A program made the translations under genes and the position numbers. This document shows positions 7,383 to 31,211 of a stretch of 32,000 bases of DNA, piece after piece. The stretch is from Aquipuribacter hungaricus. Its GTDB lineage: Bacteria > Actinomycetota > Actinomycetes > Actinomycetales > JBBAYJ01. Within the stretch, counting starts at the first letter, position 1. The number at the start of each line of letters is the position of its first letter. The notes below the pieces were generated by a model that was given only the letters and a program-made list of their open reading frames with translations, did not search any database and was not told the DNA's origin. The stretch is taken from the NCBI RefSeq assembly GCF_042663885.1, contig NZ_JBHSXV010000001.1. One strand, 5' to 3'.

Positions 7383-9010
7383 GCCCGCGCACCAAGGACC
7401 CCCGCGCCGCCGCGGGCCAGCAGGCCCGCCGCGCCCAGGCCGCCTGGGGCGAGCTGCCGGGCGCCCAGAAGACCCTCGGCGTCGTCGTCGCCCTCGCCCT
7501 GCTCGTCGGCGCGGTCGCGTTCGTCCAGTGGCAGCGCGCCCCCCAGCTCAGCCCCCTGTTCACCGGCCTGTCCTCCGCCGACGGCGGTGCCGTGGTCGAG
7601 GAGCTGCAGGCCGCGGGCGTCGCCTACGAGCTCACCGACGGCGGTGCGACCGTCCTGGTCCCCGAGGAGCAGGTGTACGACCTGCGCCTGCAGATGTCGG
7701 CGGCCGGGCTGCCCGGCGACGACACGGGCGGCTACTCGCTGCTGGACGAGCAGGGCGTCACCGCCTCGCAGTTCCAGCAGGAGGTCGCCTACCAGCGCGC
7801 GGTCGAGGGCGAGCTCGCCAAGACCATCGGCGCCATCGACGGCGTCGAGGCCGCGGTCGTCCACCTCGCCGTCCCCAAGAAGGACGTCTTCGTCGACGAG
7901 TCCGACGCCCCCACCGCCTCGGTGCTCGTGCAGACCCGCGCCGGCAAGACCCTGGACAAGGGCCAGGTCGCCTCGGTCGTCACGCTGGTCTCCAGCTCCG
8001 TCGAGGGCATGCTGCCCGAGGCCGTGAGCGTGGTCGACGGGACCGGGACGCTGCTGTCGGCCAAGGCCGCCGGGCCCGGCTCGGGCGGCGGCGTCGAGGC
8101 CGCGGACATGACCGCCGACTTCGAGACCCGCGTCGCCGGAGACCTGCAGACCCTGCTGGACACCGTGGTCGGCCCCGGCAACGCCGTCGCCACCGTCACC
8201 GCCGCGCTCGACTTCGACGCCACCGAGGCCACCACCGAGCGCTTCCTCGCCCCCGAGGAGGGCGTGCTGCCGCTGTCGGAGACCACCGAGGGCGAGCAGT
8301 ACACCGGCGCGGGCGGTGCCGGCGAGGCCGGCGTGCTCGGCCCGGACAACATCGTCGTCCCCAACATCACCGTGCAGGGCGAGGCGTCGGACAACGCCTA
8401 CTCCTCCGCCTCCAAGACCGTGAACAACGCGGTCGGCAAGGTCACCGAGCGGGTCGTCTCCGCCCCCGGCACCGTCGAGCGGCTCAGCGTCTCCGTGGTC
8501 GTCGACCGCGACGCCGTCGCCCGCACCGACATGCTCGCCCTGCAGGACACCGTGTCCGCGGCCGTCGGCCTGGACGCCGCCCGCGGCGACGTGGTGTCGG
8601 TGACCCAGATGCCCTTCGACGTCGGCGACGCCGAGGCCGTGGCCGCCGAGCTGGAGGCCGCCGGAGAGGCAGCCGCCGCCGAGGGCCGCCAGGACATGAT
8701 CTGGAACGCCGTCCTCGCCGGGCTGGTCCTGCTCGTCGTCATCATCACCCTGGTGATGGGCGCCCGGCGCAAGAAGCGCAGCGAGCCCGTCGACCTCGGC
8801 CTGTACGCCCCGGCCGACGACGAGCCCGTCGCGGTCCCGGCGATCCCCGCCCCCCGCGCCGAGGCCCTTCCCGCCGCCCCCGACCCCGAGGCCGCCCAGC
8901 TGGCCTCCCTCACCTCCCAGCGTGACGAGGTCATCGACCTCGTGGACCGCGAGCCGGCCGAGGTGGCCGAGCTGCTGCGGGGCTGGCTCGCCGACCGGAG
9001 GTCCTCGTGA
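7379..9010 (+). CDS. fliF: Flagellar MS-ring protein FliF (543 aa)
   Basis: In-frame part of track ORF 6977..9010, starting at GTG 7379, which overlaps the fliE stop. An N-terminal transmembrane segment ([17 protein letters not shown]) is followed by [53 protein letters not shown]...[34 protein letters not shown] and a C-terminal transmembrane segment ([17 protein letters not shown]). Confidence 0.92.
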
Positions 9011-10071
9011 CTGTCGCCACCACCGACGCGCCGCAGGTCACGGCGCCCGCCGCCCCCGCCGCGCCCGACCTCAACGGCCTGCAGAAGGCCGCCGTCCTGC
9101 TCGTCATGCTCGGCAAGGACCGCGCCGCCAGCGTGCTGCGCCACCTCAAGGGCACCGACCTCGACGAGCTCGTCGCCCAGGTGGTCCGGCTGCGCAACGT
9201 CTCCCCGACGGTCGCGGCCGAGGTCCTCGGCCAGTTCCACACCATGGCCGTGCGCCAGGGCGTGGTCGGCGCCGGCGGCGAGGGCTACGCCCGGGACGTC
9301 CTCGAGCGCTCGCTCGGCAAGGCCGACGCCGGCGACGTCATGAAGCGCATCGCCACCGCGACCGCCGAGCGCCCGCTGAAGTTCCTCCAGGACGTCGACC
9401 CCCAGCAGCTCATGTCCATCCTGCGCGGCGAGCACCCGCAGACCATGGCCGCGGTGCTCGTCCACCTGCGCCCCGACCAGGCCTCGGTCGTCATGGCCGG
9501 CCTCGGCGCCGCCGACCAGGTCGCGGTCGCCCGCCGCCTGGCCACGACCGGCCGGTTCCAGCCCCACGCGCTCGTCGTCCTGCAGGACCTGCTCAAGGCC
9601 CGCACCTCCTCGGTGCTGCCGCAGACCTCGTCCGACGCGGTGACCGGCGGCCTGCAGTCCCTCGTCGACGTCATCAACCGCGCCGACGCCGCCACCGAGA
9701 AGGCCATCCTCGAGGGGCTCACCGAGCACGACCCCGCCCTGGCCGAGGAGGTCAAGGCCCGCCTGTTCGTCTTCGCCGACATCGTCGGCCTGGAGGACCG
9801 CGCGGTGCAGATGGTGCTGCGCCAGGTCGACTCCGCGGTCCTCGCCACGGCGCTCAAGAGCGTCGCCCAGGTGGTCCGCGACAAGGTCCTCGGCAACGTG
9901 TCCGAGCGCGCCCGGCAGGACCTCGTCGACGAGATCGAGGTGCTCGGCCAGGTCCGCAAGGCCGCCGTCGAGGAGGCGCAGGCCGCGATCGTGCAGATCA
10001 TCCGCTCGCTGGAGGAGTCCGGCCAGCTCGTCGTGCGCCGCGGCGGGGGTGACGACGATGAGTACGTCTGA
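9007..10071 (+). CDS. fliG: Flagellar motor switch protein FliG
   Basis: LNGLQKAAVLLVMLGKDRAASVLRHL...LKFLQDVDPQQLMSILRGEHPQTMAAVLVHL...EVKARLFVFADIVGLEDRAVQMVLRQVD...MSERARQDLVDEIEVLG matches conserved FliG segments. Confidence 0.93.
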   Translation: MTVATTDAPQVTAPAAPAAPDLNGLQKAAVLLVMLGKDRAASVLRHLKGTDLDELVAQVVRLRNVSPTVAAEVLGQFHTMAVRQGVVGAGGEGYARDVLERSLGKADAGDVMKRIATATAERPLKFLQDVDPQQLMSILRGEHPQTMAAVLVHLRPDQASVVMAGLGAADQVAVARRLATTGRFQPHALVVLQDLLKARTSSVLPQTSSDAVTGGLQSLVDVINRADAATEKAILEGLTEHDPALAEEVKARLFVFADIVGLEDRAVQMVLRQVDSAVLATALKSVAQVVRDKVLGNVSERARQDLVDEIEVLGQVRKAAVEEAQAAIVQIIRSLEESGQLVVRRGGGDDDEYV

Positions 10072-10744: not shown

Positions 10745-12084
10745 GCACCGCCGCCGCGCGCCGCGTCGAGGCCCTCCTCCGGCCCCGGCTCCGCGTCGCC
10801 GCACTGGCCGCCGCCCCCGCCCGCTCGGGCCGCATCAGCGCCGTCCTCGGCCTGGGCGTCGAGGTCGACGGGGTGCGCGCCGCGGTCGGCGAGACCGTCC
10901 TGCTCGGCGAGGGCGACCTCACCACCGAGGCCGAGGTCGTCGCCGCCTCCGGCACCCGCCTCAGCTGCACCCCGCTGCGGGGCGTGTCCGGCCTGGCCGT
11001 CGGCACCACCGCGCGCGCCGCCGGCACCCGCGCCCGGATCCCCCTCGGCCGCGCCCTGCTCGGCCGGGTCGTCGACCCGACCGGCGCGCCGCTCGACGGC
11101 CTGCCCGCGCCCGCGGTCACCGCCTGGGGCGAGGTCGAGGTCGACGCCCCGTCCCCGCTGGCCCGCGGCCGCATCACCACCCGGCTGCCGCTCGGTGTCC
11201 GGGTCCTCGACGCGTTCACGCCGGTCGGCCGCGGCCAGCGCATGGGCGTCTTCGCCGGCTCCGGCGTCGGCAAGTCCTCCCTGCTGTCCATGATCACGCG
11301 CAACAACGAGGCCGCCGTCACCGTCATCGCCCTGGTCGGCGAGCGCGGCCGCGAGGTCCGGCAGTTCATCGAGGACGACCTCGGCCCCGAGGGCCTGGCC
11401 CGGTCCGTGGTCGTCGTGTCCACCTCCGACGACCCGCCCCTGCTGCGCCTGCGCGCCGCGTTCGCCGCCACCCGGATCGCCGAGGGGTTCGCCGCCGAGG
11501 GCGCCGACGTCGTCCTGCTCATGGACTCCCTCACCCGCGTCGCCCACGCCCAGCGCGAGGTCGCGCTGTCGGCGGGGGAGCCGCCCGCCACCCGCGGCTT
11601 CCCGCCGTCGGTGTTCACCATGCTGCCGCGCCTGCTCGAGCGCGCCGGGCCGCTGTCGACCGGGTCGATCACCGCCGTCTACACCGTCCTCGTCGACGGC
11701 GACGACCACAACGAGCCCGTCGCCGACGCCGTCCGGGGCCTGCTCGACGGCCACCTCGTCCTCGACCGCGCGATCGCCACCTCCGGCCGGTTCCCCAGCG
11801 TCGACGTGCTCGGCTCCGTGTCCCGCCTGGCGCCCCACGTCAGCACCGCCGAGGAGCTGCGCGCCGCCTCCCGCGTGCGCCGGATGCTCGCCGCGCACCG
11901 CGAGGCCAAGGACCTCGTGGAGGTCGGCGCCTACGTGTCCGGGACCAACGCCGACGTCGACGCCGCCCTGCGGCTCCAGCGCCCGGTCGAGGCGTTCCTG
12001 CGCCAGGGCCTCGCCGAGCCGGCGCCGGCGTGGGAGACCAGCCAGGCGCTCCAGGCGCTGGCCCACGCGGCGGGCGACGCATGA
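10741..12084 (+). CDS. fliI: Flagellum-specific type III export ATPase FliI (447 aa)
   Basis: In-frame part of track ORF 10396..12084, from GTG 10741. Walker A is GVFAGSGVGKSSLL and Walker B region is DVVLLMDSLTRVAHAQREVALSAGEPPATRGFPPSVF. This is an F1/T3SS-type ATPase. Confidence 0.95.
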   Translation: MSTAAARRVEALLRPRLRVAALAAAPARSGRISAVLGLGVEVDGVRAAVGETVLLGEGDLTTEAEVVAASGTRLSCTPLRGVSGLAVGTTARAAGTRARIPLGRALLGRVVDPTGAPLDGLPAPAVTAWGEVEVDAPSPLARGRITTRLPLGVRVLDAFTPVGRGQRMGVFAGSGVGKSSLLSMITRNNEAAVTVIALVGERGREVRQFIEDDLGPEGLARSVVVVSTSDDPPLLRLRAAFAATRIAEGFAAEGADVVLLMDSLTRVAHAQREVALSAGEPPATRGFPPSVFTMLPRLLERAGPLSTGSITAVYTVLVDGDDHNEPVADAVRGLLDGHLVLDRAIATSGRFPSVDVLGSVSRLAPHVSTAEELRAASRVRRMLAAHREAKDLVEVGAYVSGTNADVDAALRLQRPVEAFLRQGLAEPAPAWETSQALQALAHAAGDA

Positions 12085-12533
12085 GCCTCGTCGGGCTGCT
12101 CGGCCTGCGGCGCACCGCCCGCACCGCCGCCGAGCGCGACCGGGTCGCCGCCACCGCCGTGCGCGCCCGCACCCAGGAGCTGCGCGACGACGTGGTGGGC
12201 CGGATGCACGGCGACCCCCACCTCACCGACTGCGCCGGCGACGTCCGGCTGCTGCTCGCCCGCCGGGCCGGCCAGCTCGCCGACCTGTCCCGCGCCGACG
12301 ACATGCTCGCCCTCGCCGTGCAGGAGGAGGACCGCCAGCAGGTGCTCGTCGCCCAGGCGCGGCTGCGGCTCAAGGCCGTCGAGCGGCTGCAGGAGCGCCG
12401 CCAGACCGAGGAGCGCCTGCAGCGCGACCGCCGCGCTGCGCTGGAGCTCGAGGACGTCGTCGCCGGTGTCCGCCGCGCCCGGGCCGACGCCGCCCGCGCC
12501 ACCCAGGACGAGCGGGACGGGGACCCGCGGTGA
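12081..12533 (+). CDS. fliJ: Probable FliJ (export-apparatus stalk / chaperone-escort protein)
   Basis: In-frame tail of track ORF 10155..12533, from ATG 12081, which overlaps the fliI stop (ATGA). The 150-aa product is Arg/Glu-rich and looks like a coiled coil (...QARLRLKAVERLQERRQTEERLQRDRRAALELEDVV...). Its position directly after fliI supports the call. Confidence 0.6.
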   Translation: MSLVGLLGLRRTARTAAERDRVAATAVRARTQELRDDVVGRMHGDPHLTDCAGDVRLLLARRAGQLADLSRADDMLALAVQEEDRQQVLVAQARLRLKAVERLQERRQTEERLQRDRRAALELEDVVAGVRRARADAARATQDERDGDPR

Positions 12534-13573
12534 GCGTGATCGAGGTCCAGGCGCGCGTCGCGTCCATCGCCGGCCGGCTCGACACCCTCTCCGCGCGCCG
12601 CGCCACCGTCGACCCGGCTGCCGCCGCGGCCTTCGCGGCCCGGCTCGCGGGCGCGACGTCGGCCACCACGGGCGCCGGCACGCCGGGCGCCGCCGGGACC
12701 ACCGCCGCTGCCGCTGCCGGCGCGACCGGCCCCCGCACCGCGGGCGGGCCCACCGGCGGCGACGTCGTCGACGCCGCCCGCCGCTACCTCGGCGTCCCCT
12801 ACCGGTGGGGCGGCACCGACCCGGCCACCGGCCTGGACTGCTCCGGCTTCGTGCAGCGCGTCTTCGCCGACCTGGGCGTCGACCTGCCCCGCACCGTCGC
12901 CGACCAGCGCCACGCGGGCACCGCGGTGGCCTCCATGGCCGACGCCCGCCCGGGCGACCTGCTCGTCTTCGACAGCGCGGGCTCGCCGAGCGGCCGCCAC
13001 ATCGGCATCTACGTCGGTGACGGCCAGATGATCGCCTCGCCCAAGAAGGGCGAGGACGTGAGCATCATGAAGGTCTGGGACGACGTCGCCGCCATCCGCC
13101 GGGTCGTGCCCGACGGCAGCGCCGCTCCCGCCGCGATTGCCGCGACCGCCGGGGTGCAGGCCGCCGCCCGGCCTGCCTGGGCGGCCCCGAGCACCGACCT
13201 GGCCGGCGTCTTCGCCGACGCCACGGCCCGGTACTCCCTGCCCGAGGGCCTGCTCGCCGCCGTCGCGCAGAAGGAGTCCGGGATGCGCGCCGACGCGGTC
13301 AGCCCGGCCGGCGCGCGCGGTCTCATGCAGCTCATGCCCGGTACCGCCAAGGAGCTCGGGGTCGACCCCATGGTCCCGGCGCAGGCCGTCGACGGCGCCG
13401 CCCGCTACCTGCGGCAGCAGCTGGACGCCTTCGGGTCCGTCGACCTCGCCCTCGCCGCCTACAACGCCGGCCCCGGCGCGGTCCGCCGCCACGGCGGCAT
13501 CCCCCCGTACGCCGAGACCCAGAACTACGTGACGGCCGTCATGGCGGCCATGAAGGACGGACGGACCGCATGA
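12530..13573 (+). CDS. Bifunctional peptidoglycan hydrolase: NlpC/P60 endopeptidase domain plus SLT-type lytic transglycosylase domain (347 aa)
   Basis: NlpC/P60 part: YLGVPYRWGGTDPATGLDCSGFVQRVF...GDLLVF...GRHIGIYVGDGQMIASP (Cys and His present). SLT part: LLAAVAQKESGMRADAVSPAGARGLMQLMPGTA...LALAAYNAGPGAVRRHGGIPPYAETQNYV (catalytic Glu-Ser motif present). There is no hydrophobic Sec-type N-terminus. Confidence 0.85.
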   Translation: MSVIEVQARVASIAGRLDTLSARRATVDPAAAAAFAARLAGATSATTGAGTPGAAGTTAAAAAGATGPRTAGGPTGGDVVDAARRYLGVPYRWGGTDPATGLDCSGFVQRVFADLGVDLPRTVADQRHAGTAVASMADARPGDLLVFDSAGSPSGRHIGIYVGDGQMIASPKKGEDVSIMKVWDDVAAIRRVVPDGSAAPAAIAATAGVQAAARPAWAAPSTDLAGVFADATARYSLPEGLLAAVAQKESGMRADAVSPAGARGLMQLMPGTAKELGVDPMVPAQAVDGAARYLRQQLDAFGSVDLALAAYNAGPGAVRRHGGIPPYAETQNYVTAVMAAMKDGRTA

Positions 13574-25858: not shown

Positions 25859-27901
25859 GTGAAGTCGTCGGAGATCGGTCGCTACGCGGTGCCCCTGGGC
25901 GTCGTCGGCATCGTCATGCTGCTCGTCGTCCCGCTGCCCGCGGTGATGCTCGACGGCCTCATCGTCCTCAACATCGCGCTGAGCCTGCTCGTCCTGCTCA
26001 CCGCCATGTACGTGGCCCGCCCGCTGGACTTCTCCATCTTCCCGGCGCTGCTGCTGGTCCTCACCCTGTACCGGCTCGGGCTCAACGTGGCCTCGACCCG
26101 CCTCGTGCTGCTGGACGGCTACGCCGGCGAGGTCATCCACGCCTTCGGCGAGTTCGTCATCGGCGGCTCGCTCATCGTCGGCCTCGTCATCTTCCTGCTG
26201 CTCGTCGTCATCCAGTTCGCCGTCATCACCAGCGGCGCGACCCGCGTCGCCGAGGTCGGCGCCCGGTTCACCCTGGACGCGATGCCCGGCAAGCAGATGG
26301 CCATCGACGCCGACCTCAACTCCGGCCTCATCGACGAGGACACCGCCCGCCAGCGCCGCGCCGACGTCGCCGCCGAGGCCGACTTCTACGGCGCGATGGA
26401 CGGGGCGTCGAAGTTCGTCAAGGGCGACGCGGTCGCGGCGATCATCATCACCGTCATCAACCTCGTCGGCGGGTTCGGCATCGGCGTCGCGCAGCGCGGC
26501 CTGCCCTGGTCGGAGGCTCTGGAGACCTACTCCCTGCTGACGATCGGCGACGGCCTGGTCTCGCAGATCCCCGCCCTGCTCATGTCGGTCGCGACCGGCC
26601 TCATCGTCACCCGCTCGACCACCGACGGGGACCTGGGCCAGGACGCGGCCGTCCAGCTGTTCCGCAACACCCGCGCGCTGGCGATCGGCGGCGGCGCGAT
26701 GATCGCGATCGCGATCGTGCCGGGCATGCCCAAGCTGCCCTTCGTCGTCGTGGGCGTCGTGCTCCTCGTGCTCGCCAGCCGTGCCCGCGGGGCCGGTTCC
26801 GGCACCGACGAGGTCGACGCGGACGCGCCGGCGCTGCCCGCCTCCGACCCCACCGAGATGCTCGTGCAGGAGATGTCCGTCGACCCGCTCGAGGTCGTCC
26901 TCGCCACCGACCTCGTCGACCTCGTCGACACCGGCGCCGGCGGCGACCTGCTCGACCGGGTCCGCGCCCTGCGCCGCAAGGTCGCCCTCGAGGTCGGCCT
27001 CGTGCTGCCGCCCGTGCGCACGCGCGACTCGCTCGAGCTCGGGCCGGGCCAGTACCAGGTGCTCGTGTCCGGCGTGGAGGTCGGCCGCGGCCAGGCCCCC
27101 GCCGGCAAGGTGCTCGCCCTCGGCGACCACCTGGAGACCCTGCCCGGCGCCACCACCGTCGAGCCCGTCTTCGGCCTGCAGGGCAAGTGGCTGCCGGTCG
27201 AGATGCGCCACCAGGCCGAGATGACCGGCGCGACCGTCGTCGACCGCGGCTCGGTGCTCATCACCCACCTCGGCGAGGTCGTCCGCGCCCACGCCTCCCG
27301 GCTGCTGTCCCGCGAGGACGTCAAGGCGCTCGTGGAGTCGGTGCGCCGGGTCCACCCCGTCGTCGTGGAGGAGCTCGTGCCCTCGCAGCTGTCGCTCGGG
27401 GAGGTGCAGCGCGTCCTGCGCGGCCTGCTCGACGAGCGGGTGCCGGTCCGCGACCTGGTCCGCATCTTCGAGGCGCTGAGCCTGCGGGCCCGGACCTCGA
27501 CCGACGTCGACGGCCTCGTCGAGGCGGCCCGCGCCGGCCTCGGCCCCGCGGTCGCCGACGCCTTCTCCCGCGACGGCGTGCTCCGCGTGGTCACCCTCGA
27601 CCCGCTCATGGAGCACGAGATGGCCGAGCACGTCCGCCCCACCGAGGACGGCCCGACCGTCCAGCTCGACCCCGGCCGCACCGAGGCCTTCCTCGACGCG
27701 CTCGCCGGCTGCATGACCCGGGCGGACGCCCTCGGCGTGGACTACGTGCTCGTCTGCGCGCCGGGCCTCCGCTCTGCACTCCACCGCCTGGTCGGCGCCG
27801 CCGCGCCCGCCCTCGCGGTGCTCTCGTACACCGAGGCCGGCCAGGCGCCCCGGGTGGAAGCGATCGGGACGGTGAGCCATGCCTCGGCAGTTGCATCTTG
27901 A
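25859..27901 (+). CDS. flhA: Flagellar export-gate protein FlhA (680 aa)
   Basis: ...FPALLLVLTLYRLGLNVASTRLVLL...FGEFVIGGSLIVGLVIFLLLVVIQFAVITSGATRVAEVGARFTLDAMPGKQMAIDADLNSGLIDE...FYGAMDGASKFVKGDAVAAIIIT... is the FlhA signature. GGAAGAGAG lies upstream of GTG 25859. Confidence 0.96.
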   Translation: MKSSEIGRYAVPLGVVGIVMLLVVPLPAVMLDGLIVLNIALSLLVLLTAMYVARPLDFSIFPALLLVLTLYRLGLNVASTRLVLLDGYAGEVIHAFGEFVIGGSLIVGLVIFLLLVVIQFAVITSGATRVAEVGARFTLDAMPGKQMAIDADLNSGLIDEDTARQRRADVAAEADFYGAMDGASKFVKGDAVAAIIITVINLVGGFGIGVAQRGLPWSEALETYSLLTIGDGLVSQIPALLMSVATGLIVTRSTTDGDLGQDAAVQLFRNTRALAIGGGAMIAIAIVPGMPKLPFVVVGVVLLVLASRARGAGSGTDEVDADAPALPASDPTEMLVQEMSVDPLEVVLATDLVDLVDTGAGGDLLDRVRALRRKVALEVGLVLPPVRTRDSLELGPGQYQVLVSGVEVGRGQAPAGKVLALGDHLETLPGATTVEPVFGLQGKWLPVEMRHQAEMTGATVVDRGSVLITHLGEVVRAHASRLLSREDVKALVESVRRVHPVVVEELVPSQLSLGEVQRVLRGLLDERVPVRDLVRIFEALSLRARTSTDVDGLVEAARAGLGPAVADAFSRDGVLRVVTLDPLMEHEMAEHVRPTEDGPTVQLDPGRTEAFLDALAGCMTRADALGVDYVLVCAPGLRSALHRLVGAAAPALAVLSYTEAGQAPRVEAIGTVSHASAVAS

Positions 27902-29966
27902 GGGTCGGGCCCTGGAGCCCCTGCTGGAGCAGGCCAGGGCCGACCACGGCAGCGACGTCCGCGTCGTCGCCGCCCACCGCGTCCGCCGCGGCGGCATCGC
28001 CGGGTTCTTCGCCCGCGAGCACTACGAGGTGACCGTCGAGGTGGCCGACCCGACCGAGGCGCTCGCCCCGGCCGTCGGTGACGTGCCCGCGGTCCGTGCC
28101 GTCGCTGCGGTCGCGGCCCCGGCTGCTGCGCCTGTCGCACCCGTCGCGTCCGGCGTGGCGCCGGCTCCTGCCGGTCCGCAGACGCTCGAGGAGCTGCTGG
28201 CCGCGGCCGACCTGGCCGACGGCGTGGCGTCCGCGCCCGTCCTGGCGCCCGTCCTGGCGCCCGTCCTGGCGGTCGCCGGCCGGGCCCCAGCCCCGGTCGC
28301 TGCCCCGGCGGCCAGCGCTACGGCTGGTGCCTCGGCGTCGCGTGCCCCGCGGCCCGCTCCCGCCGGCCCGTCCGCTCCCGTCCCCGCTGCGGCCGCCCCT
28401 GCTGCTGCGGCCCGTACCGCTCCGGCGGCTCCCGCTGCTGCGGCCGCTCCTGCTGCTGCGTCCGCCGGCCGGTCCGCGGGCGGACCTGGCGCTCCCGGCC
28501 CCCGCGCCAAGGGCCGCCCGGTGTCCACGGAGACCCGCGGGTTCGAGGAGGTCCTCGCCGCGCTGCGGGCCGACCTGCTCGGCCCCGGCTCCGGGGACGC
28601 CCCCGACACCCGCCCCGCGCCGCAGGACGAGCGGCCCGCGGTCGTCGACCTGTCCGGCCTCCTCGAGGTCGTCGACGGGGTCGACCTGGCCGAGGTGGGC
28701 CTGCGCGCCGACGCGGCCCGCCTCGCCGACAGCGTCGCCGCGGTCCCGCGCGCCGCCCGGGTCGTCGCCCGCACCGCGTCGGTCCCGGCTGCCCGCGCCT
28801 GGCGTCCTGCCACCGTCCTGCCCGACCCCGAGCCGGCCCCCGCGGCGGCCCCGTCCGACGGGCCGGAGGCTGTCGACGAGCTCGCGGTCGCTGAGGCGGT
28901 GCTCGTCGAGCAGGCCGAGGTGCTGTCCGCCCACGGGGCCACCACCGCGCTGCCGGTCGAGGCCCTCTCCGTCGACGACCCGTCCGTCGAGACCATGTCC
29001 GTCGACGGCCTGTCCGTCGAGGGGCTGTCGGTCGACGCACCCGTCGGCACCCCCGCCGAGGCACCCGCAGCGGCACCGGTCGCCCCGCCCGGCACCCAGC
29101 CGGCAGCCGCCCCCGGCCTCGACGTCGTCGAGCTGGTCGGCCTCGCGCGGGCCGTCGGCGCCGACCGTGCCCGGGCGACCGCCGCGGCGGCCGAGGTCCT
29201 CGCCTCCGGCGTCACCACGCTGCGCCACGGCCTGCCCGTGCTGGCCGACGCCCTCACCGCCACCCTGACCGGCAGCACCGGGACCGGCCCCGGCCCCGCG
29301 ACGGGCCCCGCCGACCCTGCCGGCACCACCGACCCGGCCGACCCGGCCGACCCGGCCGACCCGGCCGACCCGGCCGACCCGGTCACCGCAGCGGAGACCT
29401 CGGCCGTGCCGGCGCTGCTGTCTGCCCGGGCCGGCGACGTCGTCGTCGTCCTCGGGGCGCCCCACCGCGCCCGCCCTTGCGCCGCCGACGTGGCCGCCGC
29501 CCTCGGCACCACGTGGCTGGCCGGCTGGAGCGACGAGCCCGGCCCGCTGGACGACATGACCGTCCGCGACCCCCGCGCGCTCCCTGGCCTCACCGCCCGG
29601 GCCCGCGCGGCCGGCCAGCCCGTCGTCCTCGCCCTGCCCGACCCGAGCCTCGCCGACGGGGTCGCCGCCGGCCAGGCCGGCGCCGGACGGACGTCCCTGC
29701 TCCGCTCGCTCGACCCCGACCTCGTCGTCCTCGTGGTGGACGCCGACGCCTCCCCGCGCCGCCAGCACGACGTCACCGCCCGGGTCGACCAGGTGGTCCG
29801 GGGCGTCCAGCGCTCGCTCGTCCTCGCGCTGGTCGGCTGCGACCAGGCCGCCGCGCCCGCGGCCCACACCGCCTGGCCCGTCGCCATGCTCGACGGCCGC
29901 CCCGCGACGGCCGGCACGTGGACCGGCGTCCTGCTCGACGCGCTGCGCGCCGAGGCGTCCCGGTGA
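27879..29966 (+). CDS. FlhF-position protein (695 aa): FlhF-like N-terminus, a long Ala/Pro-rich repeat-bearing linker, and a C-terminal domain colinear with an SRP-type GTPase but lacking the G1/G3/G4 motifs
   Basis: The ATG overlaps the flhA end by 23 nt. The N-terminus MPRQLHLEGRALEPLLEQARADHGSDVRVVAAHRVRRGGIAGFFAREHYEVTVEV resembles the FlhF B-domain start. In the C-terminal domain, GDVVVVLGAPHRARPCAADVAAAL stands where FlhF has the GPTGVGKTT region, PVVLALPDPS where it has the LIDTAGR region, and LVLALVGCDQAA where it has the ILTKLDE region. GC3 is near saturation in this frame. Confidence 0.6.
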   Translation: MPRQLHLEGRALEPLLEQARADHGSDVRVVAAHRVRRGGIAGFFAREHYEVTVEVADPTEALAPAVGDVPAVRAVAAVAAPAAAPVAPVASGVAPAPAGPQTLEELLAAADLADGVASAPVLAPVLAPVLAVAGRAPAPVAAPAASATAGASASRAPRPAPAGPSAPVPAAAAPAAAARTAPAAPAAAAAPAAASAGRSAGGPGAPGPRAKGRPVSTETRGFEEVLAALRADLLGPGSGDAPDTRPAPQDERPAVVDLSGLLEVVDGVDLAEVGLRADAARLADSVAAVPRAARVVARTASVPAARAWRPATVLPDPEPAPAAAPSDGPEAVDELAVAEAVLVEQAEVLSAHGATTALPVEALSVDDPSVETMSVDGLSVEGLSVDAPVGTPAEAPAAAPVAPPGTQPAAAPGLDVVELVGLARAVGADRARATAAAAEVLASGVTTLRHGLPVLADALTATLTGSTGTGPGPATGPADPAGTTDPADPADPADPADPADPVTAAETSAVPALLSARAGDVVVVLGAPHRARPCAADVAAALGTTWLAGWSDEPGPLDDMTVRDPRALPGLTARARAAGQPVVLALPDPSLADGVAAGQAGAGRTSLLRSLDPDLVVLVVDADASPRRQHDVTARVDQVVRGVQRSLVLALVGCDQAAAPAAHTAWPVAMLDGRPATAGTWTGVLLDALRAEASR
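28233..28268 (+). repeat. 3 x 12-bp perfect in-frame tandem repeat (GCGCCCGTCCTG) encoding (APVL)3 in the FlhF-like gene
   Basis: Copies at 28233..28244, 28245..28256 and 28257..28268. Confidence 0.95.
28965..29039 (+). repeat. 5 x 15-bp degenerate in-frame tandem repeat encoding x-S-V-(D/E)-x pentapeptides (LSVDD PSVET MSVDG LSVEG LSVDA)
   Basis: The core TCCGTCGA recurs at 28968, 28983, 28998 and 29013, and as TCGGTCGA at 29028, so the period is exactly 15 nt. Confidence 0.85.
29331..29384 (+). repeat. 5 perfect copies plus 1 variant of a 9-bp in-frame tandem repeat (GACCCGGCC) encoding (DPA)n in the FlhF-like gene
   Basis: Copies start at 29331, 29340, 29349, 29358 and 29367; the variant GACCCGGTC is at 29376. 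Confidence 0.95.
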
Positions 29967-30688
29967 GCGCCCGCACCGTCGGCGCGGCCGTCACGCTGCC
30001 CCGGCTCAACACCCCCGTCCTGGTCTCCGTCCCCGGCCTCGGGCACGACCTGCCCAGCCGCGTGGAAGACCTGCGCGGTGGCTACGTCCTCGTCTCCGCG
30101 GTCACCCCCGGCCGCACGGCCCGGGTCGCTGACGGCGAGCTGCTCACGCTGGCCTGGGCGGCGCCGCCGCGCGGCCTGCTGGCGGTCTCCTGCGTGCTCG
30201 AGCAGCAGCAGGGCGGGGCCGTGCCGCTGTGGGTGCTGCGCCCGGTCGGCGTGCTCCGCCGGCTCCAGCGCCGCCGCTTCGCCCGCGCCGACGTCTCCGC
30301 CCGGGTCGGGCTCTCCGGCACCGGCGGCCCCGCCGGCACACCAGGCACCGGCACACCAGGCACACCAGGCCCGGCTGACCAGGCCTCGCCGGCCGGCGGC
30401 TGGTCCGCGTCCGGCGTCCTCGCCGACCTCGGCGAGGGCGGCGCCCGCGTGCTGCTCGACGACGGGCACCGCCTGCCGGTGGGACCGGGGTCGTCGCTGG
30501 TGGTCGACCTGCGCATCGCCGGGGAGCCGCTGGTCACCCTGGCCACCGTCGTCCACGTCGACCCGCCCGGCCCCGGCCGCCAGCAGGTCCGGCTCGAGTT
30601 CGACCTGACGGAGCGCGACGCCGACCGCGTCCGCAGGGCCGTCATGCAGCGCCAGGTCGAGGCGCGCACCGGGGAGGAGAGGTCATGA
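29963..30688 (+). CDS. PilZ-domain protein of the YcgR type (putative c-di-GMP receptor / flagellar brake), 241 aa
   Basis: In-frame part of track ORF 29477..30688, from GTG 29963 (GTGA overlap with the upstream stop). The RxxxR motif lies in LQRRRFAR (30269..30286). A (D/N)xSxxG-like motif, DLGEGG, is at 30425..30442, followed by ARVLLDDGHRLPVGSSLVVDLRI..., which fits a PilZ beta-barrel. The N-terminal roughly 90 aa looks like the YcgR N-domain. Confidence 0.7.
   Translation: MSARTVGAAVTLPRLNTPVLVSVPGLGHDLPSRVEDLRGGYVLVSAVTPGRTARVADGELLTLAWAAPPRGLLAVSCVLEQQQGGAVPLWVLRPVGVLRRLQRRRFARADVSARVGLSGTGGPAGTPGTGTPGTPGPADQASPAGGWSASGVLADLGEGGARVLLDDGHRLPVGPGSSLVVDLRIAGEPLVTLATVVHVDPPGPGRQQVRLEFDLTERDADRVRRAVMQRQVEARTGEERS
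30336..30368 (+). repeat. Three copies of the 9-bp unit GCACACCAG (two of them adjacent) encoding GTPGTGTPGTPG inside the PilZ gene
   Basis: Copies at 30336..30344, 30351..30359 and 30360..30368. Confidence 0.85.
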
Positions 30689-30906
30689 GGTTCGTACCGG
30701 TCATGGGGCTGCTGATGGCCTCGCCCGTCGTCCTGCAGGCGGTCCAGGGCCAGCGGGACGTCCGCGACGCCCTGCTCGTCTGGCTCGTCGCGATGGTCCT
30801 GGCCGTGGGCGGAGTCGTCCTCTACCGGGCGGCCACCGCCACGTCACCGGGCCGCCCGCCGGCGGCTCCCCCCACGCCCCGGCGCCGCGCCGAGGACCGC
30901 AGCTGA
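30685..30906 (+). CDS. Small hypothetical membrane protein (73 aa, two hydrophobic segments, Pro/Arg-rich tail)
   Basis: Track ORF. The ATG overlaps the PilZ stop (ATGA). Hydrophobic segments: FVPVMGLLMASPVVLQAV and ALLVWLVAMVLAVGGVVLY. GC3 is high. I recognise no family. Confidence 0.45.
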   Translation: MRFVPVMGLLMASPVVLQAVQGQRDVRDALLVWLVAMVLAVGGVVLYRAATATSPGRPPAAPPTPRRRAEDRS

Positions 30907-30929: not shown

Positions 30930-31211
30930 ATGCTGGTCCTGAGCCGACGTACCGGGGAGAGCGTGGTCATCGGTGACGACGTCGTCGTCACGGTGCTCGA
31001 GGTCAAGGGGGACGGCGGCGTCCGGCTCGGCATCGACGCCCCGCGCACCGTCCGGGTGCACCGCGCCGAGGTCTACGCCGCGGTCAAGGCCGCCAACGCC
31101 GACGCCAGCCGCGCCGCCTCCGCCCCCTCGGGCGCGGCCGTGGAGCAGCTGCTCGAGCTGGCGTCCCGCAGGGCGGCTCGACCGGACGAGCAGGCACCGC
31201 CCGCCGACTAG
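30930..31211 (+). CDS. csrA: Translational regulator CsrA (93 aa, long C-terminal extension)
   Basis: [49 protein letters not shown] is the CsrA/RsmA signature over the whole core fold. Confidence 0.92.

Follow-up and report, generated by a model that had tools for sequence, protein, structure and literature searches.

The gene that directly follows flhA in a 32,000-nucleotide stretch of Aquipuribacter hungaricus DNA (contig NZ_JBHSXV010000001.1; the whole stretch is hereafter called the window) encodes a 695-residue protein that is probably a functional descendant of the flagellar GTPase FlhF. It appears to comprise a FliG-interacting domain (FID), a disordered linker corresponding to the B-domain linker of FlhF, and an SRP-type NG fold (SRP, signal recognition particle) from which the GTP site has been lost, and it would act as a GTP-independent adaptor of FliG. 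A first-pass annotation of the window had noticed a gene in the FlhF position with all nucleotide-binding motifs replaced, and had suggested a scaffold or placement factor that works without GTP cycling. The analysis described here confirmed that observation and supports its interpretation, the scaffold or placement function being a proposal. The exact protein has no entry in the protein collection searched. Throughout, coordinates are those of the whole window and residue numbers those of the 695-residue protein.

A word-indexed search returned ten homologues (from Aquipuribacter, 'Streptomyces sp. NP160', Puerhibacterium, Pilimelia and metagenomes), which are alike only over their first ~57 and last ~180 residues. 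An exhaustive search of 1.84 billion cluster representatives with a profile of the C-terminal region revealed 1422 proteins with E-values of 1e-3 or lower, of which 1108 reach 1e-10 or lower, and 154 sequences were retrieved for inspection. The C-terminal consensus reads pG.VlaVvGel..Al.vA...PtvVvVDAP...VWaVVDATRK.eD...vDALAV.g...T.dPAaVL.LGiPValLDGrPAT. Related loci were located with a degenerate DNA pattern for VRxGGxxGFFA, which gave 120 matches. About one-third of these were chance matches outside flagellar loci, recognized by having neither an upstream flhA nor the N-terminal domain, and ~80 were actinobacterial flagellar loci. The latter come from Actinoplanes, Pseudosporangium, Krasilnikovia, Dactylosporangium, Blastococcus, Quadrisphaera, Kineosporia, Pseudokineococcus, Cellulomonas, Demequina, Sanguibacter, Flavimobilis, Xylanimonas, Oryzihumus, Pengzhenrongella, Planomonospora, Planobispora, Spirillospora, Nanopelagicales, several Acidimicrobiia and Euzebya. 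The pattern also recovered spirochaete loci in which a similar N terminus is followed by GPTGVGKT and by a MinD-type gene, and these are consequently canonical flhF-flhG loci. An FlhF annotation, PF00448 and matches to the FlhF structures 2PX0 and 8R9R, both solved, are common to the spirochaete comparators and to 120 relatives. When eight homologues of the window protein were looked up, five had source names, all of them 'hypothetical' or 'uncharacterized'; for one of the five, that from Aquipuribacter, there is in addition a UniRef record under the name FlhF.

Profile comparison and structure prediction indicate that residues 1–55 are homologous to the FID of FlhF. The first ~55 positions of TIGR03499, the NCBIfam model of FlhF, were matched by 27 of 28 family N termini, with a best E-value of 6.5e-11 and a value of 8e-5 for the window protein. 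Alignment of the family N terminus with canonical FlhFs by hhalign gave a probability of 97.9% and an E-value of 5e-13, with 38% identity over 48 columns. Searched against PDB sequences, the family profile found its best match (E = 2.3e-3) in 9en1, a 53-residue FlhF chain that Foldseek labels 'FliG interacting domain of SpFlhF (FID)'. A model of residues 1–61 made with AlphaFold2 (AF2) has a mean predicted local distance difference test score (pLDDT) of 83 and consists of strands at residues 3–9, 27–37 and 46–55 with a helix at 12–23, the β-α-β-β topology that Dornes et al. reported for the FID (PMC11236974). The best template modelling scores (TM-scores) of this model were obtained with the 9en1 chains (0.60–0.65 by query and 0.74–0.82 by target, with a root mean square deviation (r.m.s.d.) of 2.6–2.9 Å). 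The Foldseek E-values of so short a model, 61 residues, were not significant (0.2–1), and only ranking by TM-score and r.m.s.d. places 9en1 above dodecins. The domain is present in 91 of the 154 homologue sequences. The FlhF-like N terminus recognized in the first-pass annotation is thus backed by TIGR03499, by hhalign and by 9EN1 as the best-fitting structure.

For the C-terminal region, approximately residues 405–695, structure prediction yields an SRP-type NG fold. The AF2 model of these residues, built from an alignment of 39 sequences, has a pLDDT of 84 and a predicted TM-score of 0.77, and it is composed of three helices, an insertion and a β/α domain. When the whole model was compared with the PDB by Foldseek, the 16 best matches were all SRP-type NG domains (FtsY, SRP54 and SRα), the top hit being FtsY (1rj9_A, E = 2.6e-5), followed by 1j8y, 5l3s, 6y32, 1qzx, 7epk, 2q9a and 5l3r. 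These SRP-type matches have E-values of 2.6e-5 to 1e-3, a probability of 1.0 and 10–13% identity, and because they extend over more than 300 aligned columns they include the N-domain helices. KaiC, GPN-loop GTPases and ParF rank lower, with E-values of 2e-3 to 2e-2 over half the length. The same region was aligned with FlhF by hhalign, run in local mode with the motif correspondences read from the printed alignments; ~150 columns were aligned, all five G motifs being in register, and gaps indicate that the I-box region is shortened compared with canonical FlhF. Model confidence and structural matches agree with the SRP-GTPase fold that had been proposed for this part of the protein.

Replacement of G1, G3 and G4 follows the register that the first-pass annotation had put forward, with hhalign pairing GAPHRAR with GPTGVGK, LALPD with IFVDT, and LVGCDQ with TKLDET. 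This colinearity with the SRP G motifs is not accidental, and the Foldseek result is in line with it. In the family as a whole, G3 has the consensus VVVDAP compared with IFVDTIGKSP in canonical FlhF, with only the Asp of DTxG being kept; the motif after β4 is VVDATRKxxD compared with SATTKxxD, and the G5 region is PVxxLDG compared with PIsyiTDGQ. Most members retain the Asp of G3 (VVDAP) and also a G5-like DG. Following the conserved glycine of the G1 equivalent, the family columns are E/D/P, L/R, x, x, A and L, and the residue opposite the Walker lysine is Arg in the window protein and mostly Leu in the family. Neither Walker A (GxxGxGK[ST]) nor even the looser pattern [AG]xxxxGK[ST] was found in any of the 154 homologues, and no Walker A motif was found at the ~80 actinobacterial loci; in the six frames of the window, the sole Walker A motif is that of FliI, at 11254. 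In the AF2 model, strand β1 (117–122 in model numbering) passes directly into helix 124–138, and consequently no phosphate-binding loop is predicted to be left. With the P-loop replaced by a strand-helix junction, and G3 and G4 gone, the sequence and the model make canonical binding and hydrolysis of GTP by this domain very unlikely. Orthologues had been proposed as a check on the degenerate motifs, and the degeneracy is family-wide, which removes sequence error or a strain-specific pseudogene as a way of refuting the loss.

The degenerate domain is under purifying selection, the opposite of decay. The ratio of nonsynonymous to synonymous substitution rates (dN/dS) was calculated by the Nei-Gojobori method for one pair, the window and its closest locus (L098, an Actinomycetota metagenome-assembled genome (MAG)), and as a rough estimate it is 0.31 in the FID, 0.68 in the linker, 0.30 in the N-like helices and 0.23 in the degenerate G domain. 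The GC content by codon position (0.87/0.64/0.92) marks the plus-strand frame of the gene as coding despite long spurious open reading frames (ORFs) on the opposite strand.

The position of the gene is also conserved, the FlhF-like gene lying directly after flhA in all ~80 actinobacterial loci. Its overlap with flhA measures 23 nucleotides by the ORF coordinates, as had been claimed, and an overlap of the same length was observed in 63 of 81 loci with an upstream flhA (three spirochaete controls counted in) and likewise in Pilimelia. It is constant from Micromonosporales to Cellulomonas. In the canonical spirochaete locus L028, flhF likewise sits directly after flhA, with no overlap. A MinD-type FlhG, sought as an ORF with KGGxGK[ST], was found neither in the 32-kb window nor in the stretches fetched around the actinobacterial relatives, which are 1–8 kb long and extend up to ~7 kb downstream of the gene, in some cases not at all. 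The lack of an adjacent flhG stated in the first-pass annotation therefore holds for the window and the related loci, unlike the three spirochaete controls (L009, L028 and L068), in all of which a MinD-type ORF follows flhF.

The mechanism proposed here leans on characterized FlhF proteins. The 60 N-terminal residues of the B domain of Shewanella FlhF are necessary and sufficient for FliG binding, the binding site maps to the M and C domains of FliG, and FliG bound to FlhF binds the cytoplasmic domain of FliF and not FliM/FliN; the NG domain binds the landmark HubP, HubP/FimV being a gammaproteobacterial system (PMC11236974). According to a study of Pseudomonas aeruginosa, flagellar assembly depends on the B and N domains of FlhF, the polar localization of FlhF is maintained by the G domain, and GTP binding regulates the interaction of FlhF with FliG (PMC12713375). 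The protein described here would be translated in step with FlhA by way of the conserved overlap, and would operate as a flagellar-operon protein kept by purifying selection; both steps are supported by the data above. By analogy with Shewanella FlhF, its FID would then bind the M and C domains of FliG and escort or hold FliG-FliF at the nascent assembly site. The nucleotide-free NG-like domain could provide constitutive localization, oligomerization or partner binding in place of the GTP-gated dimer, perhaps through the invariant surface that carries the family motifs VVDATRKxxD and TxDPAxVLxLGxPVxxLDGxPAT. Finally, a protein without a GTP cycle would need no FlhG, and none is encoded adjacent to the gene.

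A number of points weigh against this reading. FliG binding, the role of the NG-like domain and the dispensability of FlhG are steps that we infer by homology, and the absence of FlhG is a local one, established over the window and the fetched stretches. The structural matches of the C-terminal model have Foldseek TM-scores of only about 0.5 and large r.m.s.d. values, and the top 50 contain none of the FlhF crystal structures (2PX0, 3SYN and 8R9R). Against FlhF itself, hhalign of the C-terminal domain is weak (probability 7–21%, E = 1e-3 to 5e-3). Pfam gave no match for the full protein or for nine family members, NCBIfam matched the N terminus only (TIGR03499, at 21 bits compared with a cut-off of 174), no match to the Pfam SRP54 domain (PF00448) was obtained, and when PDB sequences were searched with the family C-terminal profile, the sole match, to a halogenase, was due to chance. 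Since similarity at the level of sequence profiles is weak, the fold assignment rests on the predicted structure. In addition, the subclade to which the window belongs (the window, P0037, L098 and Aquipuribacter) departs from the consensus in the most conserved motifs of the family.

Other explanations differ in which part of this picture they alter. The protein could be an FlhF descendant whose role lies in assembly at the export gate and not in the place or number of flagella, as a chaperone or regulator that, for example, keeps FliG from FliM/FliN or acts with FlhA. The conserved flhA overlap is consistent with such a role, as are the inability of FlhF-bound FliG to bind FliM/FliN in Shewanella and the gammaproteobacterial nature of the HubP/FimV landmark system (PMC11236974), and we regard this explanation as unlikely. 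However, no sequence feature suggests FlhA binding, and canonical flhF is also found directly after flhA (L028), so position alone cannot separate a placement role from one at the export gate. It is less likely still that the degenerate pocket binds GTP, or another nucleotide such as cyclic di-GMP or (p)ppGpp, in a non-canonical manner and that the protein remains a switch. The G3-like Asp, the G5-like DG and the conserved TRKxxD near the former pocket could be read in this way, together with the Arg of the window protein opposite the Walker lysine and the co-translated PilZ gene in the window lineage. Against this, GK[ST] is missing from the 154 homologues and ~80 loci, the family residue opposite the Walker lysine is mostly Leu, the model joins β1 directly to α1 with no phosphate-binding loop, the specificity motif TKxD is lost and no FlhG-type activator is adjacent.

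The two remaining explanations deny the origin or the integrity of the gene. If the C-terminal domain were not SRP-derived, the protein would be an FlhF head fused to an unrelated α/β domain resembling P-loop NTPases, and the lack of Pfam, NCBIfam and PDB sequence matches to this domain, the hhalign probability of below 25% and the presence of KaiC, GPN-loop GTPases and ParF in the Foldseek list all fit such a fusion. It is nevertheless very improbable, given that the 16 best structural matches are without exception SRP-type NG domains aligned through the N-domain helices, that over the ~150 columns the five positions of the G motifs are in register, as is the FlhF-type ATxKxxD, and that FlhF has both this order of domains and this gene position. 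An ordinary flhF that is decaying into a pseudogene, or that was misread in sequencing, could account for the loss of all G motifs and for the low-complexity middle of the protein. This explanation was rejected and is scarcely credible: the frame is intact with a gene-like codon GC pattern, the same degenerate state recurs in the homologues and loci of many genera, and dN/dS is low in the degenerate domain itself.

Between its two ordered ends, the protein is of variable length and composition. The linker is probably disordered. Ala makes up 29% of the central 447 residues, Pro 14% and Val 11%, and tandem repeats of 12 nucleotides (3.2 copies), 15/30 nucleotides (5.5 copies) and 9 nucleotides (8.6 copies) were found in this part of the gene; composition and repeat scan agree with the Ala/Pro-rich, repeat-bearing middle of the first-pass annotation. 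Its description of the protein as greatly expanded was overstated, as linker length varies widely across the family: the 154 homologues, many of them fragments, span 184–796 residues with a median of about 430, and ORFs at the genomic loci reach ~1200 residues. The 9-nucleotide repeat is located at 29306–29382, inside a PAD-repeat insertion that separates the N-like helices from the G-like domain and is missing from L098 and most homologues. Within the fast-evolving linker, two short motifs may be partner-binding linear motifs. In Micromonosporales and other groups the second of these takes the form (L/V)STxxxxFAEVLAGL.

Six further loci (L001, L095, L017, L114, L051 and L061, from Ilumatobacter, Acidimicrobiaceae and Actinomycetes MAGs) encode a FID-like N terminus with a C terminus that the family profile does not match. 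The gene follows flhA in these loci (flhB in the short L061 stretch), and none has a Walker A motif. A faint VGPLxxAxxVA...VVVDxP pattern survives in L051 and L061, and L001 and L095 look unrelated; the six may represent further stages of divergence.

The window as a whole has a GC content of 75% and carries an actinobacterial flagellar cluster. The gene order is sigma factor, fliC, fliD, fliS, fliF, fliG, fliI, an NlpC/SLT hydrolase gene, fliK, flgD, flgE, flbD, motA, motB, fliL, fliM, fliO, fliP, fliR, flhB, flhA and the FlhF-derived gene, followed by a PilZ gene, a small hydrophobic ORF and csrA. The last gene, after csrA, is one that we take, from its sequence, to be a putative purQ. Translational coupling to the PilZ gene, the other arrangement singled out in the first-pass annotation, stands for the window, where the GTGA overlap is real, and does not extend to the family: PilZ lies downstream in only L098 and the Planobispora locus L111 among the related loci, with csrA or other genes elsewhere. 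L098 shares the PilZ, small-ORF and csrA neighbours with the window, and in Cellulomonas-type loci csrA is found downstream of the FlhF-like gene more often than any other neighbour. The PilZ gene carries an internal Gly/Thr/Pro repeat. The small ORF (30685–30906) encodes 73 residues, overlaps the PilZ stop codon (ATGA) and is matched by a homologue in the corresponding position of L098. Within the flagellar operon, the ORF at 12530–13573 encodes NlpC/P60 and SLT lytic transglycosylase domains and may be a stand-in for FlgJ, which a survey of flagella across the phylum reports absent from these classes (PMC10746217). The positions of the features are collected in the table; those of the N terminus and of the three motif peptides agree exactly with the coordinates given in the first-pass annotation.

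Table. Features of the FlhF-derived gene and of associated genes in the 32,000-nucleotide window
Feature	Position	Strand	Basis or remarks
FlhF-derived pseudo-GTPase gene	27879..29966	+	ORF with ATG start, 695 residues; codon-position GC; homologues; conserved place after flhA
FID-like domain, residues 1–55, β-α-β-β (predicted)	27879..28043	+	TIGR03499 match; PDB 9en1; hhalign; AF2
Ala/Pro/Val-rich, repeat-bearing linker, residues 56–404	28044..29090	+	Composition; tandem repeats; unalignable across the family
Linker motif 1, QTLEELLAAADLADG	28179..28223	+	Nearly invariant L and A columns; mini hidden Markov model (HMM) matches in 12 of 154 homologues
Linker motif 2, RPVSTETRGFEEVLAALRADLLG	28515..28586	+	Mini-HMM matches in 25 of the 154 homologues, Micromonosporales among them
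Counterpart of the SRP N domain, three helices, residues 416–463 (predicted)	29124..29267	+	AF2 helices H12–21, H26–38 and H44–59 (model numbering), pLDDT 90–95
Low-confidence Gly/Thr/Pro and PAD-repeat insertion between N-like helices and G-like domain	29268..29438	+	pLDDT 53–63
Degenerate G domain, residues 521–695, alternating β/α like a P-loop NTPase (predicted)	29439..29963	+	AF2 secondary structure, pLDDT mostly 85–95
G1 (P-loop) equivalent, GAPHRARP in place of GPTGVGKT	29454..29477	+	Translation; hhalign register
G3 equivalent, PVVLALPDPS in place of lIfVDTIGKS	29619..29648	+	Translation; hhalign register
G4 equivalent, LVLALVGCDQ in place of VVlTKLDET	29817..29846	+	Translation; hhalign register
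flhA	25859..27901	+	Pfam FHIPEP, E = 1.6e-243; 23-nucleotide overlap with the FlhF-derived gene
PilZ-domain gene	29963..30688	+	Pfam PilZ, E = 2.8e-8; GTGA overlap with the stop codon of the FlhF-derived gene
fliG, putative partner of the FID-like domain	9007..10071	+	Pfam FliG_N, FliG_M and FliG_C
csrA	30930–31211		Pfam, E = 1.7e-23; closes the flagellar cluster; 40-residue Ala-rich tail

The loci described here come from Actinomycetes, Acidimicrobiia and Nitriliruptoria (Euzebya), which we take to be the three later actinobacterial classes distinguished in the phylum-wide survey. FlhF and FlhG together are regarded as a conserved GTP/ATP switch for the place and number of flagella. In that survey, published in mBio in 2023, FlhF and FlhG were used as queries and FlhF is reported absent from the three classes (PMC10746217). 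Contrary to this reported absence, an FlhF-derived pseudo-GTPase family is widespread in them and largely unannotated, and the FlhF inventory of the survey would stand to be corrected. A 2025 review of the FlhF-FlhG switch does not mention Actinobacteria (PMC12826062). A literature search found no paper joining FlhF with 'pseudoGTPase', and FlhF was unmentioned in the 15 top-ranked results of a search by genus name; a possible link to a paper on TrxA/PtxA and flagellation in Actinoplanes was checked and found to be unrelated. It is quite possible, and is offered here tentatively, that this family is, as far as the search could show, the first natural pseudo-GTPase reported in the SRP/FlhF branch. 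Flagellated Actinomycetes, Acidimicrobiia and Nitriliruptoria would then have turned FlhF into a nucleotide-free scaffold and dropped FlhG, with site selection or assembly initiation proceeding through FID-FliG contact and a re-purposed pocket (VVDATRKxxD / DPAxVLxLGxPVxxLDGxPAT) and no GTP/ATP switch. Such a protein would be a natural separation-of-function allele, showing which activities of FlhF need no GTP. It would also offer a handle on flagellar initiation and placement in monoderm bacteria that have no FlhG, such as the flagellated zoospores of Actinoplanes, for which genetics is available, and a large unannotated family (the 1422 cluster representatives) could be given a name.

As the closest known system, FlhF (Bacillus subtilis, 2PX0 and 3SYN; Shewanella putrefaciens, NG domain 8R9R and FID 9EN1) shares with the protein described here a FID-like head, a disordered linker followed by an NG fold, and the gene position after flhA, and the FlhF-type ATxKxxD and DG are retained in the family. 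Unlike FlhF, the protein has no P-loop, no DTAG glycine, no TKxD and no adjacent FlhG, and its Ala/Pro-rich linker extends to as much as several hundred residues. The NG domains of SRP54/Ffh and FtsY/SRα provide the best structural matches to the model (1rj9_A, 1j8y, 5l3s, 6y32 and 2q9a), from which it differs in being encoded in a flagellar operon, in having no PF00448 match, in the loss of the nucleotide motifs and in an identity of only 10–13%. Pseudo-GTPases, GTPase folds that have lost G motifs, have been described mainly from eukaryotes, examples being CENP-M and the pG domains of p190RhoGAP. Like the present protein, they keep the fold under selection without nucleotide motifs, and they use it as an interaction module, as the present protein would; the protein described here differs from them in being bacterial and in belonging to the SRP/SIMIBI branch. 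GTPase-defective point mutants of FlhF in Pseudomonas, Vibrio and Campylobacter have revealed that part of FlhF function is independent of GTP hydrolysis. Those mutants are laboratory-made forms of active enzymes that still bind nucleotide, whereas the loss in the family described here is natural, complete and ancient.

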